A stretch of 63,445 nucleotides of DNA, counting the filler, from Folioceros fuciformis (taxonomy: Eukaryota): assembly GCA_049999805.1 (NCBI GenBank). It is 4 parts of 4 records of this genome, joined end to end, with 100 filler letters (N's around TTAATTAATTAA, not from the genome) between each part and the next. Parts side by side here need not be neighbours in the genome. Positions count along the whole stretch, not along the records: positions 28,757 to 59,886 come from JBNGIO010005477.1; 3 more parts are not named here. One strand, written 5' to 3'. Numbering within the stretch: the first letter of the stretch is position 1; each line of letters begins with the position of its first letter. The notes under the pieces were generated by a model. That model saw nothing but the letters and a program-made list of their open reading frames with translations. It was not told the DNA's origin and did not search any database. This document shows, piece after piece, positions 8,673 to 62,900 of this stretch. Made by a program: the position numbers and the translations under genes.

Positions 8673-10729
8673 ATGGAGAAAGTGGGTGCACTCTTGCGAT
8701 GGTGGGCGATAGTGCTGGTGCTGGTGCACGCGGAACTGGCAACATGTTTAAGGNNNNNNNNNNNNNNNNNNNNNNNNNNNNNNNNNNNNNNNNNNNNNNN
8801 NNNNNNNNNNNNNNNNNNNNNNNNNNNNNNNNNNNNNNNNNNNNNNNNNNNNNTGGGAGCAGGGGGTGGGGGTTGAACGAGGGCAGAGGCGGGACTGCTA
8901 GGGCTTTGTCGGATGCGTCTTGTCCTTTGGATTTCAGTGTGCTGGATGGGTACCCAAGACCCATGCAGGACTGTCTGGGAACCTTGGAGCTCAACAGCAC
9001 ATCCACGTGCTGCGAGTCGCTCTTGTCCAGGTTCGGGCTGGTGACTTCTTTGTATTTGAGGACCTCTGGTAACTTCGAGGTGCCTGGCGGAGAAAATGCC
9101 CAGGCGTGTGTGGAAGGCTTTGATTCCAAGCTTCAAAGTCAAGGACTGTTTCCGAACATTGTTCCACAATGTTTCCCTACCGCAGCTCCTTTCACACAGG
9201 ATCCCAGCTTGTGTCACGGGATTTTGAGGACAAGTGACTTCGAGGCGAGAGTGGATACTTCCGCGTTGAAGAAAAGCTGCAATGGGGATTTGTTGGACCT
9301 GGCAAACTGCAGACATTGCACTTCGGACATGGGTGATGTTGTGTTGCAGCTGAATGCTACTTCGGCTAACAGATGTCTTCCTTTTGTCGTAATCTATTCA
9401 GCGGGTGTGGCTAATGGGAAGGGCCCATCTGACCTCGGGGCTGCCGAGTGTATCCTGGGGGTGACGGTCGCGTTGAGCACGGAGAAAAGTAGGCATATTG
9501 CCTTGGATATCAGTGTTGGTGCAGGAGTCATAGTGGCTTTCAGCGTTGCCGTGGCATTTGCTGTCTATTACTGGTGGTGGAGGCGTAGACGAGCCATTCA
9601 CCGGAACTTCCTCGACAGAAACTGCAGGATGCTGAGACCCAACATGGGTTTGGTGTGGTTCAGCTTTGATGATATCAAGGCAGTCACCAAAAACTTTTCT
9701 GACAAGCATCTCATCGGGGAGGGGGGATTTGGGAAGGTTTACAAAGGCTACATGTATGATCTTGGAATGGAGGTTGCAGTGAAGAGATTCAAGAACTGCT
9801 CTCCAGAGACGGATGCAGACTTCCGGAGTGAGGTGGAGAGGATCAACAGTGTGCGTCACCGCAACCTGGTGGTTTTGAAAGGGTGCTGCATTGACAGCAC
9901 CCCCGCAGATGGCCACCAGCGCCTGCTCATCTACGAGTACATGGCCAACGGCAGTTTATATGACTATCTCTTTAACGGCACCAAGCCTGTCCTCACTTGG
10001 CAGGCAAGAAAGAAGATTGCCTTTGGTATGGCCAAGGGACTTGCCTATTTGCACGATGATATGCAGCCCGCCATCATCCACAGAGACATCAAGTCCAGCA
10101 ACATCCTCTTGGATGTATCACTTGAAGCCTACGTGGCAGACTTCGGTCTGGCGAAAACCATAACAGAGCTGGCAACTGCAACTGGCAAGGAAGGCAGTGT
10201 AGCAGGCACGTACGGGTATGTTGCCCCTGAGTACGCTCTGTACGGGAGGATCACTGAAAAGGGAGATGTGTACAGCTTTGGAGTTGTTCTTCTGGAGCTG
10301 ATAAGTGGACGCAAAGCACTGGACACTGGGTCCGACTCACCTGAGATGATGCTGATTGTGGACTGGGCCTGGGCACTTCTCAAGGCCGGCAGACTCGAAG
10401 ACATAGTGGACGCCAGGATCCAAGCCTCCACCCACGAGGACGAGATGGAAAGATTCATCAGAACCAGCATCCTCTGTGCACATCCTCTGGTAGCCTTTAG
10501 ACCCAGAATGCAGGACGTCCTCAGACTACTGGAAGGAGATATGGCTATTCCAGAGATGCCAGACCGTCCACTGCCTCTGCTCACTCCCAAGTCAAATCAC
10601 GACAGCCCTCGAGCATACGTCTTCGGAAGCAGGGGCACCCTGGAACTGGCATCTCCACCAGGCATCCCCAGCTGTGACTCAGTCTGCACAAAGGAATATC
10701 TCAGTGTGGAGCTTCTTGATGGCAGGTGA
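8673..10729 (+). CDS. Receptor-like kinase with a Cys-rich SPARK-type ectodomain (RKF3/At1g11050-like); no introns in the sequenced part, spans an N gap
   Basis: Signal peptide MEKVGALLRWWAIVLVLVHA, then SCPLDF...CC...C ectodomain, a TM segment followed by WWWRRRR, and kinase motifs GEGGFG, VAVK, HRDIKSSN, DFG and GTYGYVAPEY. Confidence 0.9.
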
Positions 10730-28656: not shown

Positions 28657-29870
28657 NNNNNNNNNNNNNNNNNNNNNNNNNNNNNNNNNNNNNNNNNNNN
28701 TTAATTAATTAANNNNNNNNNNNNNNNNNNNNNNNNNNNNNNNNNNNNNNNNNNNNGGACACGCACCCCGGGCAATCATCCTCACCAGCCTGAAGACCAT
28801 CGCCATGGACCCAGCCTTGGACAAGAACGGCGGAGTATTTACCGCTCCCGCGGCTGATGCAAACGGCGAGGTCCACAAGTGAGCTCCATCAGCCACCAGG
28901 TGGCAGGTACACACAAGTGCACCCAGTAAATACATACCTCATACAAGGATTTGGCTTGCACTACCATTTTCTTCGAACTCTCCGAGTGTCTTACATTCCA
29001 TTCTCGTATGGCAACGTTCCCTTCCTAAAGACAAGATACAATTGTCCATGGGCTGTTCCTTCATCAAGAACATTGGAATACGTACTTAGGTTGTGAGGGT
29101 GATCACCGTGAGCGCTCGAGGGAGGTGAGGTTGAGAAGAGGGATTGAGTAAGGGATTGTTATGGTAGAAGAAAGGGAAAGGACAGAAGTGAAACAGGTGG
29201 GAAGAGCTAGGGTGGACTAGAGAACGGAGGGTGGTACGTACTGTTTTTTGTTATATAGGAGCCTCTGGAGGGATGGTGTGGAAGTGGGACCACGGGAAGG
29301 GGGGTCTACCTGCCTTGGAGCTTCGTGTGTCCTGGAGTTCGCAAAACGGGTGGCGCTCTTTCGGCCCGGTCGCAGGGAAGAAGCGGAAGGATCCAGGAGC
29401 GAATGTACTTTGGGCCGTGGGTGTTGTTGCTGCGCAGAAATGGGTGTTTCAGTGCGCGTGCACAGGCACAGGCACAGGCACAGGATTGAAATTGCGTCGA
29501 AGACATGACAACTGGTGTGAGCACGTGAGTGTCCCGCTCCCACTGCTGCTACTTCCGCTGCCCTGCCCGTGAGCAGTCTGCTCCTGGTGGCGCTGTTGCT
29601 GGCCTGCCGTGCGCTCATTCTTCAGGCTACTGGGGTTGGGATTTGTGTACCAGGCGGGCTTGGAGGCCGGTGCTGCGGCCAAGGCCACTGGAATTGAAGC
29701 TCGATGATCGCCCGGAGGGCTGTGGTTAGCAGGCTCGGATTCCGGTTCTCAATTTTGTAGCTGGAGAGCGGGCACTTGTGCAGGAGGCGGACGAACGGGA
29801 TTCGCCAGCTAGGACCAGTGCTGCGGTGGTTGTGGAGGGAGGTGGAAGTTTGCGAGCGGGTGCAGGCGGG

Positions 29871-50432: not shown

Positions 50433-53400
50433 ATGGAGGAAACGGGGGAGTCTGGGGAGACGAGGGAGACTTGTGCTCCACAGGGAGATTTGCTGTGCTT
50501 TGCAACCTGGCAGAGCGCTGTGGACGAGGGCTTCTGGCAGCGGCTGGCCAATTTCAAGCTGGACACGCAACGGCTGGGGGAGCATCCTGTCCCAATCACG
50601 GGCTTCTTCGCTCCATGTGGCCACGCGAAGCTGCCGTCACGAATGCAGCTCTTGTCCGAGTCTATGCCAGCGGAGTCTGGGGACGTGAAGGAGGTGTCTT
50701 GGAATCGGAACAGATGCCCCGCACCGGGAACACTTTACACCGCTAATTCGCTCGAGAACTTCAAATCGTTGGACGGAAAAGCACTTCTGGAAGGTGCAGC
50801 TCGGCAGGTGTAATTCAACTTCATTGCCTTGATGAGTCTGTTACAAGTTATGTTGTGCGGCTGATTGGAATGTGACGATGAGTGCGTGAGTTTATTGCAG
50901 ATATGGGACGACATCCGATCCGGGCGAGCAGAAGAGTCCAGTAACCTGCTGAACCGTTTCGTGGTGATTTCCTATGCGGATTTGAAGAAGTGGAGATTCT
51001 ACTACTGGTTTGCTTTCCCGGCGATTGTCCTTCCTACCCCAGCCTCTGTTTCCTCTGTGAAGCCGGCCTCTGAGTTTTGGAGCTCAGATCAGGTAGACCG
51101 TCTGCCATATTGATTGCTATTGGTAACCAGTACCTGGCTCGATGTGGCTGATAGTTTGTTGACTTCATGCACTCGGTGTTTTTCGCAACAGGCTGGCGGT
51201 TTCCTGTCAGCTTGTAAATGTTGGAGGGAATCGAAATCAGAGGCATGTAAGTGAGTCAGGCTGAAAGTGATCAAGGTGTGGTAGGGATCTTGAGGGACTT
51301 GTAACTGCTTGCGACGCGTCATGTCTTGGTGCGTAGCTAGTTAGTTTTGTTCTGAACTTGGAGACATCGCCTACAGGCTCGCCTTTTTTCCTTCTGTACA
51401 AGGGCCATGATGACTCTGTAACGGCAAGGCCATTGGGTGAGTGGCGTACCTTGAAGCAGGACGGAGGCGAGGTTTGTTCGATTCCCTGCCTGGCTCCTCA
51501 AATGCCGCATTGTTCTTGCAGTCCCCTCCATTAAGCTGTCCACGTCGCATGTACAGCAGTATCAAGTACAAGGAGTAGTTGCTGGCACACGCAATTATTT
51601 CCATAGCTGTTCAGCTAGGTGCAGTGTGAACTGAACCCTGACACTGAGAACGGTGGCTGTGTGACAGATTGTTTGTGCATTCTATGATCCCTGCCACTCT
51701 AATGAACATCCAGGATGGCCTCTTCGAAATTTCCTTGCTCTGGCTGTTCAACTGTGGCAAGTGACGGACCTGCAAGTGCTGTGCTACCGGGAAACACGAG
51801 GGCAACCTGATTTTCAGCATAGTTTGGTTCTTGATGTTATTCTTCCGAAAATTCCAGGTAAGTTGTTGAGGATACTCGTCTGTAGCAATGTAAGGGCTCA
51901 CTTGCAAGGTGAGAAGTGCCGCACAATAGCTCGAAGGTTGTGCACAATGGGAAAATTCAAATTTGGAAACCTTTTGTTTGAAAGATAAGAAATCGTCGAA
52001 GGTTGTGCAGAATGGGAGGTTTCAAATTTGAAAACCATTGGTTGGGAGATGAACACTCGAACAAAGAAGTATGGGCCCCAAATTGCTGACCTGGGCGATG
52101 TACTCGACCCCGTCAAGTGAGTTTCGTGGCTACATGTCAACTGATGTTTTAGGCAGTATCCTCAGTCTGAAGGTATCTTACTGCTCTCAGGCTAGCTGCA
52201 TCAGCTGCTGATCTCAACTTGAAGCTGATGAGGTGGCGCCTGTTGCCATCTTTGAACTTGGAGCGATTATCGTCCGTAAAATGCTTGATTCTTGGAGCTG
52301 GTACATTGGGTTGTCAGGTTGCACGTAATCTGATGGTAATGTTGGTTTTGTTGACCTTGAGGAGGGTGAAACGTTTTCATGTACTTCTGGCTTTATGAAG
52401 TTATGTAATGTGCTTCTCCCTAACTCTGTATAGATGCCTTGTTTCACAGGCTTGGGGTGTAAAGCATATCACACTTGTAGACAGCGGGCGTGTAGCAATG
52501 TCCAACCCTGTCCGACAATGTTTATATACTCTTGAGGATTCCCTTAATGGTGGTAAACCGAAGGCAGAAGCAGCAGCTGTGAATCTGAAGCGTATCTTCC
52601 CTGGTGTGGTAGTTGGACTGATCCTGAGCTTTTGCTGGATGCTATACAGATTTGGTTAGCTTTTCATTGGTCCTTTGAGTTGCAACCGTAGACTACTGAG
52701 AACCTACAGTTTGTCAGACTGACATGCATCCTGTAGGAAGCAAGAGGGATTCAAATGACAATCCCAATGCCTGGCCACAGTGTATCGCAGCAACAGGAAG
52801 CTCATGTGAAAGAGCAGTGTAGGCAGCTAAAACAGCTGGTGGATGAACATGACATCGTCTTTCTGCTAACTGACACGAGAGAGAGTCGATGGTTGCCAAC
52901 ACTCTTGTGTGCTGAGGGAAACAAGGTGATTGGCTTGAGTGGATGTTCGTCTATTCTGTGTTTCTCGTACAGTATTTGTTATGCTGAGTGGCATCAGAAT
53001 CTAATGTTTTAAAGGCTTTGATGCAGATTGCAATAAATGCCGCACTGGGTTTCGATACTTTCTTGGTCATGAGACACGGAACAGGACCTGCGTCTGGTCA
53101 GCAGGACGAATGTCCACCTAGATCACGTTTGGGATGCTATTTTTGCAACGACGTAGTCGCTCCACAGGATGTGGGTGTTCTTGTTTCTGTGTTAGGGGTC
53201 ATCTCGTCCTTGACTTGGTTTTCGTTGTTAATAGAATTGTGAGTGGACACTAAAGTGAAGGCTGTGAGTTCTTGGTGTGACGCAGTCCATGGCGCAGCGA
53301 ACTCTTGATCAACAGTGCACTGTGACCAGACCAGGTTTGGCTCCAATGGCAGGTGCTCTTGCGGTGGAGCTGGCTGTGAACATCTTGCATCATCCTGATG

Positions 53401-53915: not shown

Positions 53916-54287
53916 AGTACTTGGTCAGGATGCGCAAGGGTGGTTGCAGCTCGGGCGAGCAATTGGAAATTGGATTCATTTGTTTCGCTATGACCTGGCT
54001 GTTACATCCAACAGAGGAGTGTGTCGTAGAGGACAATCTGGAAGAACATTGCCTAGTTGCTTCTGGATACACACGTACACTCGATTCAGGGGTTTTTCAA
54101 GACTCACAGCTTCGATCAGTTCCGAGGAGGACGGTTCTCATGTTCGTTCAGATATATTACAGACACTGTCTAGTTTAGGGTCGTTTCAGGGCAGAGAGGT
54201 GGCTCGCAGGTCAGTGAGATGCAGCAGCCTTGCAGTACCGTGTCTTATTTTACAGGACTTGGGGATGGAGTTGCGCAGGGCGATCGA

Positions 54288-57136
54288 TCACTGCCTCGAC
54301 GTGGTGAGGTGAACCATGAGCGTGAGAAATTCCGCAAAATCCAGCGCCCAGTCTCCACTTGAGTCCCCCCGGAGCATCAAATCCCTCAGCTCTGCCTGCG
54401 AGCACTCCAACCCTCTCAGCATCAACCCCGTGCCCAGCTCCTGGAGCGAGATGCGGCCGTCCCCGTCCCGATCATAGGCCCTGAACTCCGCCCTCCAGGC
54501 CTGCAGCTGCGCGGGGCTGATCTGCGGAGCGTCCTCAGCCCCGGGCCCCAGGCGGCCCATGAGATTCAGAAACTCCCCGAACTCCAGCTTCCCGTTCCCG
54601 TCCAAATCCCCCGCGGCAATGTAGGCCCGCACCTCCTCCTCCCCCACGTCCTGCCCCAGCAGCCGCAGCAGCGCCCCGAGCTGGTCCATCGTCAGGCTAC
54701 CGTCCCCGTCCTGGTCCAGCAGGTTGAACTTCTCGCGGTACACCGCCACCAGCTCCGGCCTGACCTCGGGGATCGCGAGGGGTCCATCGGGAACCGGAGA
54801 TGCCGGTGAGGAGTCGGGCGTGGCCACGGAAGCGGAGGCAGCGGCCATGACGATGAGGAACTCCGGCAAGCTTAGGCTGCCGTTGCCGTCCAGGTCGCCC
54901 TCGCCAATCATGGCGGCCACCTCGGCCTCGCTGGCCGTCTGGCCGAAACGGCGTAGCGCGGCGCCGAGCTCGCGCGCGCTGATGCTCCCGTCGCCGTCTG
55001 CATCGAAGATGCCGAAGAGAGTGGTGAAGTGCAGAAGCTGCTCCGGGGACAGCCGCGGCTGGAACTGGGAGACGGAGCTACGGCGACCGGCGCCGCCGGT
55101 CATGAAGTCGAGGAACTCGGCGAAGTCGAGGGTGCCGTTGCCGTCCGCGTCCGCCTGGGCCATCACCACCTGCAGCTCCGTCTGGCTGAGGTTGTGGCCC
55201 AGCAGGCGCATGGCGGTGGCCAGCTCCTGCGTCGTGATGTGGCCGTCGCCGTCCCTATCGAAGACCATGAACGCCTCCTTCAGCCGGGATACGTGCTCCA
55301 GGGTGAGCGGCTGCGAGGACGAGGGCGACTCCGCCGTGGCGCAGATCAGCTCGTGATGGGTGTACATGAGATCCAGGAACTCCGCCATGTCGATCACACC
55401 GTCCCCGTCCACGTCCACGCTGCGCATCATGGCCTGGAGCTGATCGGGGGTGGGCATTTCACCCAGCAGCCGCAGCGCCACGCCCAGCTCGTCGATGGTG
55501 ACGCCGCCGTCCCCGTCCCGGTCGAAGGCGGTGAAGGCGTCTTTGAAATGCGCGATCTTCTCGGGAGTGAGGTTGGGGAACCGTCGCTGCAGCTCCTGCT
55601 TCACGGCTATGCATTCCTCGTCCTGCTCCGCCCAGGCGAGCACCTGGTTGATCATGAGAAGGGCCTCGCCGCACAGGCGCTGCCCGGCCAGCCGCAGTGC
55701 TTCGGCGCGGTATTCCTTCCGCCGCCGCCGGAACTTCTCCTCCTGCTCTGGGAATTTGTCGAAAAGTCTGCTGCGCACGTCGATGTCGTCGAACTCGATC
55801 TTGAGGGGGCGGTCCTCCCGCCGGTCGAAGGGGCTGCGTGTCATGCTGCTGGCGTGGTCGATGAAGGTCCATCTGTCGTACGTCCGCCCATCACTGCCCT
55901 TCACCGGATCGCACATCACTTCCCAGGTGATGGGGTCGTGGTACCACTTGAGCGTGTCCGTCGCAGGACTCTTTTTGGACTTGCTGGGTGGCTGATGGAT
56001 GTCCGGCACGGGTGCTGGTGTTGCAATGGCACGCCCATCTGCAGCCCTGCTGTTCCTGCTCTTCGACGGCGCTTCCAGTTCCTGCACAATCTACAGTCCA
56101 GCGTAGCCCAAGACCAAGGTCATCAGTACTCCCCCACCCCTAGCCTAGGTGCGGACATGCGTATGCTGGTTGCAATCTTGGCTCGTGTATGACAAACACT
56201 GGCTGCAACGGGATGGTCACCACAGGGCCCGGACACTTACGTGCGAGAAAAACTGCCGCACTTCATCGCTCTGTGGCTCTGTCGCCTTGAGGAAGAAGAG
56301 AGCCTCGTCCATTTTGCGGGGAAACGGCTCCATCTCAGCCCGAACGGGCTGCCACAGCCCGTGCAGCTCCCGTTGGAGCACATCCTTCAGAGACGGCGCG
56401 CTCTCGGTTGTCAGAGCCTTGACAAGGCCTTCAACCCTGGACAAGGCGGCCTCGAACTCCTCCTCGTTTCCACGACTCTTTAAGTCCACCTGCAACCGAG
56501 CCCCAGAGCAACCCAGGTCACTCCACCTGCCAGTGCACCCAAGCCCCCAACCAAACCCAAGCACAAACAGGGTCACCCCTTCCTTTCCTGCTTGCAACCA
56601 AATGACAGTCATCCAAGTCTTGTGGACGCGTCCCACGCACATTCAAGACAGTGAACAAGATGGTTATCTGGAAAAGTGTGACGATGCGCTCACGGAGCAG
56701 CCGCAGCTCCGAGTGCACCTTCTTGGCATCCCACACCGAGTCAAAGAAGCCCTTGCCTAGGATCTTATACGCCTGCCTAGCTGCGTCCCGCAAATCCACC
56801 ACCAACCCCTCTGCAACCAAGCACCCGATATGACAGACAAGGCCCCTCAGCTTAGCCTCTTGCCTCCAGGCTCAAGGTGGACATCAATGGGTGCAAGCCC
56901 TCAGTGTTGCACATACCATTAGCCAATGTTGCGGCGTTGTTGCGTGCCGACGTGTCGCCACTCAGCAACTTGATGTTCTCCTCCAGATTCCTCATCAAAG
57001 CATCGAGCTCCACGGCGACATCCTCCGTACTGCCGTCGCCATCCTGCTTCTGATCCCACAACCCCTTGCCCAAGAGCACGATCCTCAGCAGCGTCTCCGC
57101 ACCAGAGATGGCCGCCTTCACAACAGACTCCCCCAT
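54288..57136 (-). CDS. Multidomain protein of about 813 aa: N-terminal helical bundle, U-box, TPR-like hairpin and 5 calmodulin-like lobes (10 EF-hands)
   Basis: Phase-consistent GT-AG exons 57136-56917, 56810-56641, 56489-56241 and 56090-54288 (2442 nt). U-box-like DPITWEVMCDPVKGSDGRTYDR..SPF. Ten EF-loop motifs, eight with canonical DxDG(D/N)G....E. Confidence 0.85.
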
Positions 57137-57859
57137 TCCTGCACCAGCACCCGGGACTGGCAGCCCAGCCACAGGCGTAGCTTGTTACGACGGAATTCGA
57201 TTCCAGAAAGAGTGAAACCAAAGGAATCCGCTAGCCGTGAGCGTCTTGGGTTTGATCCGTTCGAGACGAGGATTCGCAAATTGCGCTGCAACTGTCAGGA
57301 AGGTGTGACAAGCGTGTGGACTTGGTCATCAGCTTCCGAAGACCGCCATCCCGAGTTCATCAATTCCAGATCACTCTAACCAAAACCCACCACCATGGTC
57401 CCGGGTACGACACAGGAAGGCGCAATATGCCACACGATGACCAACAGTTTACCCCTAACCCGATCACTTTAAGCGATTAACTGTGCGTCTCGTCTGACGA
57501 TCTGACTCTGTTCAAATAGCTGGGATGGTAAAGCATGAGGTACCTTCCTTGTACGTGGCGCTTTCGAGTAGGGAGCAGGCTCAAGGCTCCAAGCTCGCCT
57601 CCAGAGTCCACAGCGCCTGCTGGTGCGAATCTTCCAGTTGGACGGCATGGCCCCTCATTGCTGCAACAAACAGCTGCTGTTGACCCGTCAGTCACAAATC
57701 GAGCCCAATATTTCGGTTCTTTCAGGAAACATTTTTTGTTGCCCTATCTTCCGGGCGTGGACTGTTAGGAGAAGGGCTGGTCCTGCTGGCCGTGACCTTA
57801 CATCTCAATGGAGCTTTCTCATGACTCTGACCTTAGCAGCCGTGGAGGGTCAACAACGG

Positions 57860-59100: not shown

Positions 59101-59986
59101 TGGGAAATCTGATCTGGTGTATCTTTGTCCTCAAGCTCGTAGATCTCTGTGACGTTAAGTTAGAGAGGACGATGTGGCAACGCAGAAGAATGAAGGAGGG
59201 AAGGAAGGATGCGATCTTCGTATCATGTACATATCCATATTGGTAGTGATTAGGCCTCAAGTGGGCTAGCCCCTAATGTTCCTATCATGGTGATGGATCT
59301 TTCCATCTTGAATGTAATTTAAAATGAATTGGATGTGGTGGCGGAGAAATCCTGGGTGGGGCTTGCGTGCGAGGAAGGGAGGGTGAAGCATACGGGGTTG
59401 CGCGGAATGCAAGATATGGCCATTTTATTGTACTGTACGACGAGGGGGCCACGTGGAGGGAGACGAGGAGGAGCGTATTTTCCAGCGTGGCGTCCCCACG
59501 AATGGGATTCGCCAATTGGCATCGCCGAATGGTGCCCCTGAGAAGGCCACGTCGGAAAATGCCACGGCGCTTCTGCCGCCGCCGCTACTCGCCTGGCCGC
59601 CACTCGCATCGCAGCGGATAACCCTAACCTGGATGGAGGGGGACAGGGAGAGAGGCAGGCAGGGATCGAGGGTGGCCAATGGGAACAGCCAAGCCCCGGT
59701 TTTAGGGTCGCTCCACTTGGCACAGGACTGCTTCGAGGATGGCCGCCCACCGCACGCCGCGTGGCAGACACGTCAGGAATCTGCTCTCGCTGCGGCCTAC
59801 GGGTCTTGGTCGCGCCCGCGGAAGCACCCCGGGACCGGTCCTCACGCGACACTCCGACACGTGGACCGGAATCTACCACTGTAATTNNNNNNNNNNNNNN
59901 NNNNNNNNNNNNNNNNNNNNNNNNNNNNNNTTAATTAATTAANNNNNNNNNNNNNNNNNNNNNNNNNNNNNNNNNNNNNNNNNNNN

Positions 59987-62900
59987 TCGTTGAGACATTG
60001 GGTTTCGTTCCCACGAAGGAGCGATGGGGTTCCGTGCTGCTGTGGATGGAGGGTCGGACTTGATCGACTCGATGACGGATTCGAGGGCTCCCCTCCAGCT
60101 CCGATCAGGCGTAGGACAGGCCTCGCTGTCCGGCGGTTAGCTGCACCTCTTTTGGTGCCCACAAACTCAATCCAGTCACTACAACGACTCTAACCTCTCA
60201 GATCTGCGACTTCCCTCACACACTTCACTTACTCTCTCACTCCAGCACCAACACCAGCAACGACACCACTACCTTGTACACTTCCCTACGGACTCCTCCT
60301 ACCCGGCAAGAGTCACTAGACTAACCCCAAACAAAAGGAAGAAGGGAACACACTCCCCTCTTGGGTATCTCCTCCCCACAACCTTACCAGACGCCATGAG
60401 ACATGGCCGGCCTACAGCACTTGACCAAGCAAGGAACAAGAGTGGACAGGTTGAGAGAAAGACACACCCTTTACATCAAGAGCTAGGGGCAAGCCCCTAC
60501 ACCCGGGTCATTACACCTTGTGATCCTACCAGACACTGTACAGCCGGCAACACGCTGCCTGCGATCCTACCAGACACTGTACAGCCGGCAACACACGGCT
60601 TGCGATCCTACCAGACGTTGCACAGCCGGCAACACACTGCAGGTCCTAAAAACCAAGCAGGGACAGACCACAAGAGCTCATGAAGAGAGGACCTCCAAGA
60701 GCTCACGAAGAGATAGCCTGACTCCCCAAAGTGAATGACTCCTTCTTCCTTCAGGCTCACCTGATCTTATAGGAGCCTCTCTCTCTCTCTGACTTCACCT
60801 CTCTCTAACTTGAGAAATATTATTTTAATAGCCTAGCCAGCTGTCACCAGCCACTTATTTAGACTTCTAGCACAACCTGCCACCAATGAGCTCCTGGCCC
60901 TACCACCACAAGGATCTACCACCTCTTAGACTATCCTGAGACTTCAGAGGATGTCTGATCTTGAAAGATCTGCGGACGCCGCCTCTTCCTTGCTGGATGG
61001 TCGCCCGCTAAGTCTTCCCCTGCAACTGTTCACCCTTGGTGGCTGAGCCAGCCTCTAGGGAAGGAGCATGAGCAATGGGAAAGATAGAGAAGAGGTGGGA
61101 AGGAATGGGATCAGCAGCCGGAACCTGGCCTGAAAACGGTAGCTTATTCAGCGGGATCAGCTCCCAGCCGAAATGGTTCCTCGGCCATGGAAGACTAACC
61201 CCGAGGTGCTGGGGAAGGCCCGGAACTAAGAGGAAAAGAAAGTAGGTGAAACGAAGTTGAAATGGAATTTCTGGAATTAAATCCAGAAAAATAGGGAAGA
61301 AAATAGAAAAGGGGAAATTAGGAAAATAAAAAGAAAAGGAATACGGGGGTACGTATACGGTATAAATATCAGTATGTATTAAATACGTATCTAAACCGTA
61401 TAAAATATAAGGGGGTATACGTATATGGACCGTATACGGTCTCTAAAAAAACACCTTACTTGGAGTAAGGGGAGGGAGCGGGATGGAGGAGCGGGCAGAA
61501 ATCAGAAATGGGGGGGGAAGACGGGCAGAATGGACCACGGGAGCGGGCGGGACGGGCAGATCCGGCGCCGCGGTGGCTGGGGAAATCAGCGCGCCGCCGC
61601 AGCTAGGAAAATTGGTTAGCAGCGGGGTAGGATGGGCAGGAGGCTGAGGTAGAGATGGACAGCAGCGGAGGAGGNNNNNNNNNNNNNNNNNNNNNNNNNN
61701 NNNNNNNNNNNNNNNNNNTTAATTAATTAANNNNNNNNNNNNNNNNNNNNNNNNNNNNNNNNNNNNNNNNNNNNTCATGAAGTAAGAGCTGAAGACCAAA
61801 GGGTGGCAAATGACAAAATGAATTAAGGGGACTTTCCTAGCCTTATAGGATCTCCCCTCTCTCTTCATGCTCTCTCTCTCTATAGGTCAATACTATGAAA
61901 AGTCAACTAATTAATGAACCTCTTGGCTCACTTATCTAGGCTTGCCTAGAAAATGACCTAGTGTCAGAACTCTTAATGGGCCTACCATTTAGGCCCAATC
62001 ACCACAAGTTAGCATGAACTAAGTCTAAACAGTGGGGTATGACCCCACTTCTGACACTCCTTCGCCAGTTGTCCTTGGGAGGGAACCTTCTGATCTTCTA
62101 CTGGCTGAAATTATCCTCCTCGTCCTTCGGTGCTGTCACTTTATCAGCTGGTCTCTTCCTTATTGCTGACTGTGGTGCAGTTGTTGGGTTGCTCTCCAAA
62201 GGCATAGGAGGAGAGGACTTCTCCTGTCCTATAGGCAACAAAACTGACAGATCCACGTTAGCTTTTGTCCTAGGGTTAGGTGTCCCCAAGATCTCCTATC
62301 TGTCACATGTGCATTTCGCATCTGTCAGTGGCACTCCCCTACCAATCTTGGGGTGGGCATAGGACCAATGTTGTCCGTAGAGCCATTCCATCCTAACGTT
62401 AGGATCCGTAGCATAGGGACGGAAGTCCCACATATCCTTGGGTGACACCTGTCCTACAAGGCACAAAAATTTTGTGTTCTCTTGCTTGGGGGCACTGGTG
62501 GAGCGGGAGTGGAATCCACCTGTACCTCTGTCTCACCCATGCTCTTCCTTGTCTTCATGTTTTGCTGGTGGAGCCCCAAGTCCAGTCACTGCCGACAACA
62601 CTTCCATCCGTGAAAGAGAAAAGTACCTCAGCATTGGAGACTCCTACAACCGGGCTCCTACCCGTGACTCATAGCACTGCTTGCAACCCCTTCATCAGCT
62701 CCCAGGCCACCCTTTATCACCACTCTTGCAATTGTCACCTGCACCCCGAGAAGGAAAAAAAGGGGGGGGAAGGAAAGGAGGCCGAGAGCCACACCCCCTC
62801 CTTTGTTCTTAGCCACAACCCATGGAGTTTGAGGCACCTGCCTTGCTCCTTGCCCATAAGTGAAGAAGAGAAGGAAAAAACAAGCAAAAAGGGGTAGGAT

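Follow-up and report, generated by a model that had tools for sequence, protein, structure and literature searches.

The stretch analysed here (the window) comprises 63,445 nucleotides, filler included, from Folioceros fuciformis (GenBank assembly GCA_049999805.1); its positions 28,757 to 59,886 come from record JBNGIO010005477.1. On the minus strand between 54 and 57 kb lies a gene for a protein of 813 amino acids (aa) in which a helical N-terminal domain (N-domain) is followed by a U-box and then by five EF-hand pairs. Region 56241-57136 (minus strand) holds the start codon and the first three of its four coding exons. In the explanation that we favour, and consider reasonably likely as a whole, this region encodes the N-terminal 214 residues of a ubiquitin ligase, of the U-box type, in a non-seed land plant. 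The first approximately 130 residues (exons 1 and 2) are probably a four-helix bundle (4HB), homologous in divergent form to the MLKL_N/MCAfunc/RPW8 class of plants and with the fold of the coiled-coil (CC) domains of nucleotide-binding leucine-rich repeat proteins (NLRs).

A spliced four-exon gene for a U-box and EF-hand protein

The limits of region 56241-57136 are exact: 57136 is the A of the start codon and 56241 is the final base of coding exon 3. The region has no single open frame and is broken by two introns (106 and 151 nt), both GT..AG. The joined coding sequence of 2442 nt is in frame and is translated into 813 aa. Transcript support was taken from public run X1, the single sequencing run in which the gene was found, whose RNA label is only a guess. 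A 5600-nt contig from this run was 100% identical to the window with zero differences, extended 264 nt or more beyond the ATG on the 5' side and omitted exactly the three introns listed in Table 1, all GT..AG on the gene strand. Because the contig is intron-less with canonical borders, as a spliced transcript would give, the model was taken as confirmed: the gene is expressed and spliced as modelled, with four exons. With all collected proteins as tblastn queries, no second gene copy was found in the window, and N-domain or U-box matches were obtained only at 54-57 kb.

In exon 4, the U-box model PF04564 scored above the Pfam cut-off (32.2 bits against 21.4, E 1.2e-7) over positions 5-48 of the 73 in the profile; in its second half the U-box diverges. 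The U-box region is 67% identical to that of protein P0005 and 60-63% identical to those of Marchantia U-box proteins. The EF-hand region was matched by EF-hand_7 in 5 stretches (E 1.5e-67) and by EF-hand_1 in 9. In the literature, no account was found of a U-box fused to EF-hands, nor of a bryophyte U-box protein that carries an MLKL-like or CC-like bundle; subscription reviews, including the review on PUB (plant U-box) proteins cited in PMC11579444, lay largely outside the scope of this search.

Table 1. Features of the U-box/EF-hand gene in the window, in the order of transcription
Feature	Positions	Strand	Content	Basis
5' untranslated leader, minimum extent	57137..57400	-		X1 contig unbroken 56917-57400; first in-frame ATG 57136
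Coding exon 1	56917..57136	-	73 codons + 1 base; predicted helices 1 and 2, start of helix 3	translation; donor GT 56916-56915; contig joint 56810/56917; alignment to model
Intron 1	56811..56916	-	106 nt, GT..AG	absent from contig; + strand ends CT..AC
Coding exon 2	56641..56810	-	170 nt; predicted helices 3 and 4; GFF..W.A.K...L...FQ motif; bundle stops at exon end (..TVLN)	translation; BLASTP; alignment to model
Intron 2	56490..56640	-	151 nt, GT..AG	contig joint 56486/56638, 'cut +3' = 56489/56641; GT 56640-56639, AG 56491-56490
Coding exon 3	56241..56489	-	83 codons; second subdomain, predicted helices 5-8	translation; BLASTP; alignment to model
Intron 3	56091..56240	-	150 nt, GT..AG	absent from contig
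Coding exon 4 with stop codon	54288..56090	-	linker, U-box, helical extension, five EF-hand pairs	translation; Pfam; contig unbroken 54000-56090
U-box core	55815..55943	-	residues 50-92 of exon-4 translation	Pfam PF04564
EF-hand region	54291..55547	-	five EF-hand pairs	Pfam EF-hand_7, EF-hand_1

ATG7-like open frames were observed at 52171-53242 on the plus strand, converging on the 3' end of the U-box gene. Their E1-like motifs, read by eye, are presumably features of ATG7. The X1 contig extends 2575 nt past position 54000 on the 3' side, toward this ATG7-like gene on the opposite strand; the transcripts of the two genes may overlap or may have been merged by the assembler.

The N-domain family and its partner modules

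A search with the U-box part of exon 4 returned 25 proteins, of which the named ones are from Marchantia, Riccia, Calypogeia, Ceratodon and Adiantum. The top match, P0005, also carries EF-hands after the U-box and is a single-exon gene call without an N-terminus. Many of these U-box relatives begin with approximately 215 helical residues, over which the three exon translations of the window tile collinearly. By BLASTP, the spliced N-terminal 216 aa were 33% identical to Marchantia paleacea P0006 over 216 columns (E 3.5e-30). Exon 2 matched residues 72-123 of Marchantia P0007 (38% identity, E 6e-12) and residues 69-124 of P0013 (E 4e-10), and exon 3 matched residues 125-210 of P0013 (E 2e-8). 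With exon 1 by itself, P0013 was not matched by BLASTP (E 8.7); this exon was placed by multiple alignment and by the full-length BLASTP.

The N-terminal region was turned into a profile (A1), with which 1.84 billion representative proteins were searched; 61, 36 and 21 proteins were reached at E <= 1e-3, E <= 1e-10 and E <= 1e-30, respectively, counts that point to a small family. Among the 29 longer family matches scanned with Pfam, a U-box (E <= 0.01) follows the N-domain in 17; C-terminal partners in this set were a kinase (4 proteins), ARM, ZZ and one NLR, and in the first eight relatives SPRY, TPR, ARM and EF-hand. The N-domain usually precedes the same unusual U-box, which is followed by a variable module: ARM, TPR, SPRY, kinase, ZZ or, in the present gene, EF-hands. 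The family is unannotated and escapes every Pfam model applied to the window and to close relatives. Four gene identifiers of the Marchantia relatives were sought in the supplements of PMC11579444; in the portion of that source available, the sole match was an expression-table row for Mp4g06240, and no classification was seen.

Twenty matches were looked up, and names were obtained for 16, including Adiantum (ferns), Riccia and Calypogeia (liverworts), P0083 (a grass, Aristida) and P0076 (a basidiomycete yeast). Liverworts, ferns, a moss and one basidiomycete fungus are the sources of the named family members. The fungal protein P0076 (Microbotryomycetes sp.) was reached with its N-domain at E 5.6e-5 in the family search. 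Compared with P0068, it matches in the N-domain (E 3e-6) and in the U-box region (33% identity, E 1e-13). Its N-domain, weak U-box and TPRs repeat the layout of Marchantia P0006. For P0076, considered together with P0068 and P0072, an old shared family, gene transfer and contamination are all possible explanations.

Three short, exon-sized proteins, P0073, P0061 and P0057, are 57%, 51% and 41% identical to window exons 1, 2 and 3, respectively. They are probably the same gene of a related species, called exon by exon, which suggests that the exon borders are conserved. In P0062 (747 aa), a retro-element integrase (Integrase_H2C2, rve) stands ahead of a stretch that matches profile positions 120-208, the second half of the N-domain; this protein is probably a chimeric gene call or reflects a transposon inserted beside a family member.

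The NLR of the family is P0040 of Riccia fluitans. Its N-domain at residues 86-292 is followed by an alpha/beta-hydrolase, NB-ARC and leucine-rich repeats (LRRs). This hydrolase shows 35% identity (E 2e-39) to the one at the N-terminus of four Calypogeia U-box proteins (P0025, P0027-P0029), which carry the same U-box and have the hydrolase in place of the helical N-domain. Both alternative heads of the U-box family thus stand in tandem on one liverwort NLR, so that N-terminal modules are interchangeable between the U-box family and liverwort NLRs. Hydrolase- and kinase-headed NLRs of non-flowering plants have been described (PMC11218826, in the part available).

An uninterrupted protein-kinase exon was observed elsewhere in the window, at 9521-10552 on the plus strand. 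It is 40% identical (E 8.6e-55) to the kinase domain of P0035, a Riccia protein with N-domain, U-box and kinase, and 31% identical to the grass MLKL_N-kinase P0081. No N-domain or U-box adjoining this exon was found in the window by tblastn at E <= 1e-4. At 59887-59987 and near 61.8 kb, runs of N surround ttaattaattaa, which looks like an assembly or masking linker and not like biology.

Probable kinship and predicted fold of the N-terminal bundle

A sequence-only reading of the region had proposed an N-terminal bundle of the MLKL/HeLo/RPW8 type. The peptides that it quoted are present: MGESVV...GLWDQ and VAVELDALMRNLEENIKLL in the frame of the ATG at 57136, and LVVDLRDAARQAYKILGKGFF...FQITILF in exon 2. 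The GFF..W.A.K...L motif that it noted agrees with the family consensus g.fks.W.a..t.s.Le.lrq.l.s.FQ.

Kinship to the MLKL_N/MCAfunc/RPW8 class was indicated by the tail of the A1 search, which contained P0078 (E 1.2e-4), P0081 (E 3.9e-4) and P0083 (E 8.6e-4). The alignments of P0081 and P0083 begin at the first residue of each protein and span profile positions 3-127; that of P0078 spans positions 8-143. On exactly those stretches, MLKL_N (cut-off 27) scored 42.5 bits in P0083, 32.2 in P0081 and 26.8, just under the cut-off, in P0078. P0081 was also matched by MCAfunc (36.9 bits, cut-off 35), and in both P0081 and P0083 DUF7792 was above its cut-off and RPW8 was weakly matched. Within the family, MLKL_N weakly matches P0031, one of the core members (E 0.009). 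When the 42 rows of a second alignment (A2) were scanned singly, MLKL_N was the most frequent Pfam family, with sub-threshold matches in 6 of 42 rows (best E 5.4e-4).

For profile comparison by hhalign, the first 135 residues of 13 grass MLKL_N/MCAfunc-kinase proteins were used as comparison set. A2 against these grass N-termini gave a probability of 86.6% (E 4.5e-6) over 116 columns (10-125 against 10-128), whereas the control with reversed grass sequences gave 0.7%. Out of 100 column-shuffled grass alignments, none reached the real score of 42.5; the best was 19.8, with 2.2% at most, and at least two runs returned no result. The resemblance to MLKL_NTD, MCAfunc and RPW8 domains put forward from the sequence alone is thus supported at the profile level. 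The first half of the family alignment alone gave 88.6% (E 2.7e-6) against the grass set, whereas the second half showed no relation to the grass MLKL_N-type profile (0.3%). An internal duplication was ruled out by comparison of the two halves with each other (0.4%). From these two low values it follows that the MLKL_N relation concerns exons 1 and 2 only and that exon 3 is a different subdomain, not a duplicate. In a language-model search, the nearest named clusters were MCAfunc (0.85, 0.82), PUB10_N (0.82), RPW8 (0.81) and MLKL_N (0.81).

The fold was examined in AlphaFold models of two relatives, P0007 (residues 1-222, 42-row alignment) and P0013 (residues 1-220, 9-row alignment). For P0007, the predicted local distance difference test (pLDDT) was 85.9 and the predicted template modelling score (pTM) 0.83, with helices at 2-26, 31-53, 60-86 and 95-122. 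For P0013, pLDDT was 86.9 and pTM 0.86, with helices at 2-26, 30-54, 61-87 and 96-123. Both models contain the same eight helices, the last four at about 128-221. Window exons 1 and 2 (about 131 aa) align to the first four helices, and the end of exon 2 coincides with the end of helix 4. Exon 3 aligns to helices 5-8 and closes with the family motif EKFF.DVL (here EVRQFFSH); by these models it is a probable separate four-helix subdomain linking the bundle to the U-box. The four helices counted from the sequence thus correspond to exons 1 and 2, from which the quoted peptides derive, and not to the whole of 56241-57136; in the models of the relatives, a further four helices fall to exon 3.

In an exhaustive structural alignment, the same plant immune CC domain was the best natural match of both models among the 50 rows listed (105 of its 107 residues covered, root-mean-square deviation (rmsd) 2.0-2.3). 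The models are suggestive of a CC/MLKL-type bundle, with which they are consistent as structures without amounting to proof. HeLo, Helo_like_N and HET-s HeLo, the first of which the sequence-only reading had also invoked, were found neither among the 25 Pfam families listed out of 117 nor among the 50 structural rows listed. As to the extreme N-terminus, the window protein starts with MGESVV and some relatives with MADLV.. or MEPVS.., starts that look similar to the MADA/MAEPL motifs. N-myristoylation of the MG start was set aside, because an acidic residue follows the glycine, against the usual rule for this modification, and because relatives start with MA or ME.

Several results weigh against the bundle assignment and the reading built on it. 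With Pfam, the three exon translations of the window matched no family even at E <= 10, and the N-terminal approximately 220 aa of eight relatives gave only chance-level rows at E <= 1. A profile search of PDB sequences returned nothing, the best hit (E 0.11) being a designed protein. The language-model scores (0.77-0.85) came from streptophyte clusters only and, all lying below 0.9, serve as leads only. The structural models are of relatives 33% and 27% identical to the window protein and not of that protein itself. No PDB structure was matched by Foldseek at E <= 1e-3, designed proteins, rhodopsins and GPCRs being the top rows. The bundle of the window protein has a net charge of -3 and, by a crude measure, no obvious basic lipid-binding surface. 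Finally, both the role of the bundle and the control of the ligase by Ca2+ are inferred.

Known systems, proposed function and significance

The closest known systems share the bundle with the window family in different ways. Plant MLKL_N, MCAfunc, DUF7792 and RPW8 bundles (PF22215, PF19584, PF25055, PF05659), for example those of grass 4HB-kinases, likewise occupy approximately 120-130 N-terminal residues with four long helices, have in common an F...W.A.....L pattern where helix 3 ends and within helix 4, and are related at the profile level (hhalign 87-89%, family matches at E 1e-4 to 9e-4). Unlike them, the window protein and its close relatives go undetected by the Pfam models, a conserved four-helix subdomain follows the bundle, and the partner in the window protein is a U-box with EF-hands instead of a kinase or pseudokinase. 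In monocots, the MLKL 4HB/HeLo domain is reported to be what the MCAfunc, DUF1221 and Cbl-N annotations cover (preprint 10.64898/2026.08.07.743466, in the part available).

PUB-ARM ligases with a UND/MCAfunc domain (PUB13 and PUB45 type; PUB10_N, PF25368) resemble the window family in the helical domain directly N-terminal of the U-box, in the presence of ARM-repeat members (P0020 and P0045 in the window family) and in the language-model lead to PUB10_N and MCAfunc clusters. In contrast, the MCAfunc and PUB10_N models match neither the window pieces nor the eight relatives, including ARM-bearing P0020, at E <= 1; the U-box of the window family is a divergent subtype (WYHDPITWE...DDIDVRSRLF); and the window family swaps its C-terminal modules freely, with EF-hands in the present gene. 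According to the available part of PMC8049495, ligases with MCAfunc, U-box and Arm occur from charophytes onward and represent the oldest MCAfunc architecture, ancient in streptophytes.

CC domains of plant NLRs (Rx_N type, for example potato Rx CC, 4m70, and barley MLA13, 9fyc) gave the best natural structural match of both models, and the family member P0040 is itself an NLR with the N-domain at its N-terminus. However, Rx_N was not matched in sequence among the 25 Pfam families listed of 117, and the window protein has neither NB-ARC nor LRRs; among the relatives, only P0040 has both. The animal MLKL four-helix bundle (PDB 4btf, 6ux8) and Arabidopsis MLKL3 (6ka4) are also counted among the closest known systems. 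A 4HB before a U-box, and 4HB domains common to NLRs, MLKLs and ligases, are thus known already. The present branch is unseen by current domain models, has an extra subdomain and swaps its C-terminal modules, which in the present gene are EF-hands.

A mechanism can be proposed to which we give slightly better than an even chance. The U-box would recruit an E2. The C-terminal module would act as the input, Ca2+ bound by the EF-hands altering how the ligase is folded or how active it is. For the bundle, we propose a role as a targeting or assembly module, as MCAfunc/UND-type domains are thought to act in PUB-ARM ligases (targeting, partner binding or self-association); it would bring the ligase to a membrane or close to immune-signalling partners and would not itself be the killing device. 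Of the sequence-only reading as a whole, the resemblance to an MLKL/RPW8-type bundle has gained support, whereas the Ca2+-triggered death or pore function that it attached to the bundle stays conjectural.

That function corresponds to an alternative in which the bundle is a membrane-inserting death or pore executor, like the 4HB of MLKL, RPW8/CC-R domains or the CC of resistosomes; its release would follow a Ca2+ rise that the EF-hands sense, and auto-ubiquitination through the U-box would keep it in check. The probable homology class and fold of the bundle are also those of executor domains, and the N-domain of P0040 sits where NLRs carry their signalling domains, a fusion that adds some weight; N-terminal modules are interchangeable between the U-box family and liverwort NLRs. 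In the available parts of the respective sources, CC domains of non-flowering plants kill cells when expressed alone (PMC11218826) and grass 4HB-kinase proteins are immune components (10.64898/2026.08.07.743466; PMC10951266). Nevertheless, we consider an executor unlikely: the domain is followed by a U-box in 17 of 29 scanned relatives, the conserved four-helix subdomain after the bundle lies outside MLKL_N-type profiles, the net charge of the bundle is -3, and the placing of MCAfunc-type domains before U-boxes is an ancient and widespread feature of ligases that are not known to be executors (PMC8049495, available part). Extended to the whole family, this alternative would describe unrecognised immune or stress executors of bryophytes, ferns and possibly fungi, in which a CC/MLKL-like bundle is hard-wired to a U-box and a sensor, Ca2+ releases the bundle at the membrane (as pore or channel, or for recruitment) and the U-box ends or propagates the signal; we regard this extension as very unlikely.

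Helical hairpins or coiled coils occur in other U-box E3s. A generic helical scaffold or dimerisation element, with no specific MLKL/RPW8/CC kinship and with weak matches due to helical composition, would fit the lack of Pfam, PDB-sequence and Foldseek matches and the language-model scores below 0.9, but is quite unlikely, given that the profile reaches MLKL_N/MCAfunc-bearing proteins (E 1e-4 to 9e-4) end to end over its first approximately 125 positions, that hhalign gives 87-89% against 0.7% for reversed sequences and 2.2% at most for shuffles that keep the composition, that among the weak Pfam matches of members MLKL_N recurs most often, and that one immune CC domain is the best natural match of two independent models.

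Four-helix bundles of the MLKL/RPW8/CC class are executing ends of cell death in animals, fungi and plants, and the gene bears on the questions of their origin and of their non-lethal uses. Here, a bundle too divergent for current domain models stands on a ubiquitin ligase with EF-hands, and the same N-domain is found on one liverwort NLR as well as on ligases whose sensor modules are of many kinds. If the N-domain were only a scaffold, the locus would still define an unannotated domain family and a U-box/EF-hand fusion. If it were an executor, the protein would be a one-protein switch from Ca2+ to death or from Ca2+ to ubiquitin. An active bundle would mean that one polypeptide joins Ca2+ signalling to ubiquitination and to 4HB signalling, and the gene would then offer a simple non-seed-plant system for what the MCAfunc/UND-type domains of PUB ligases do.

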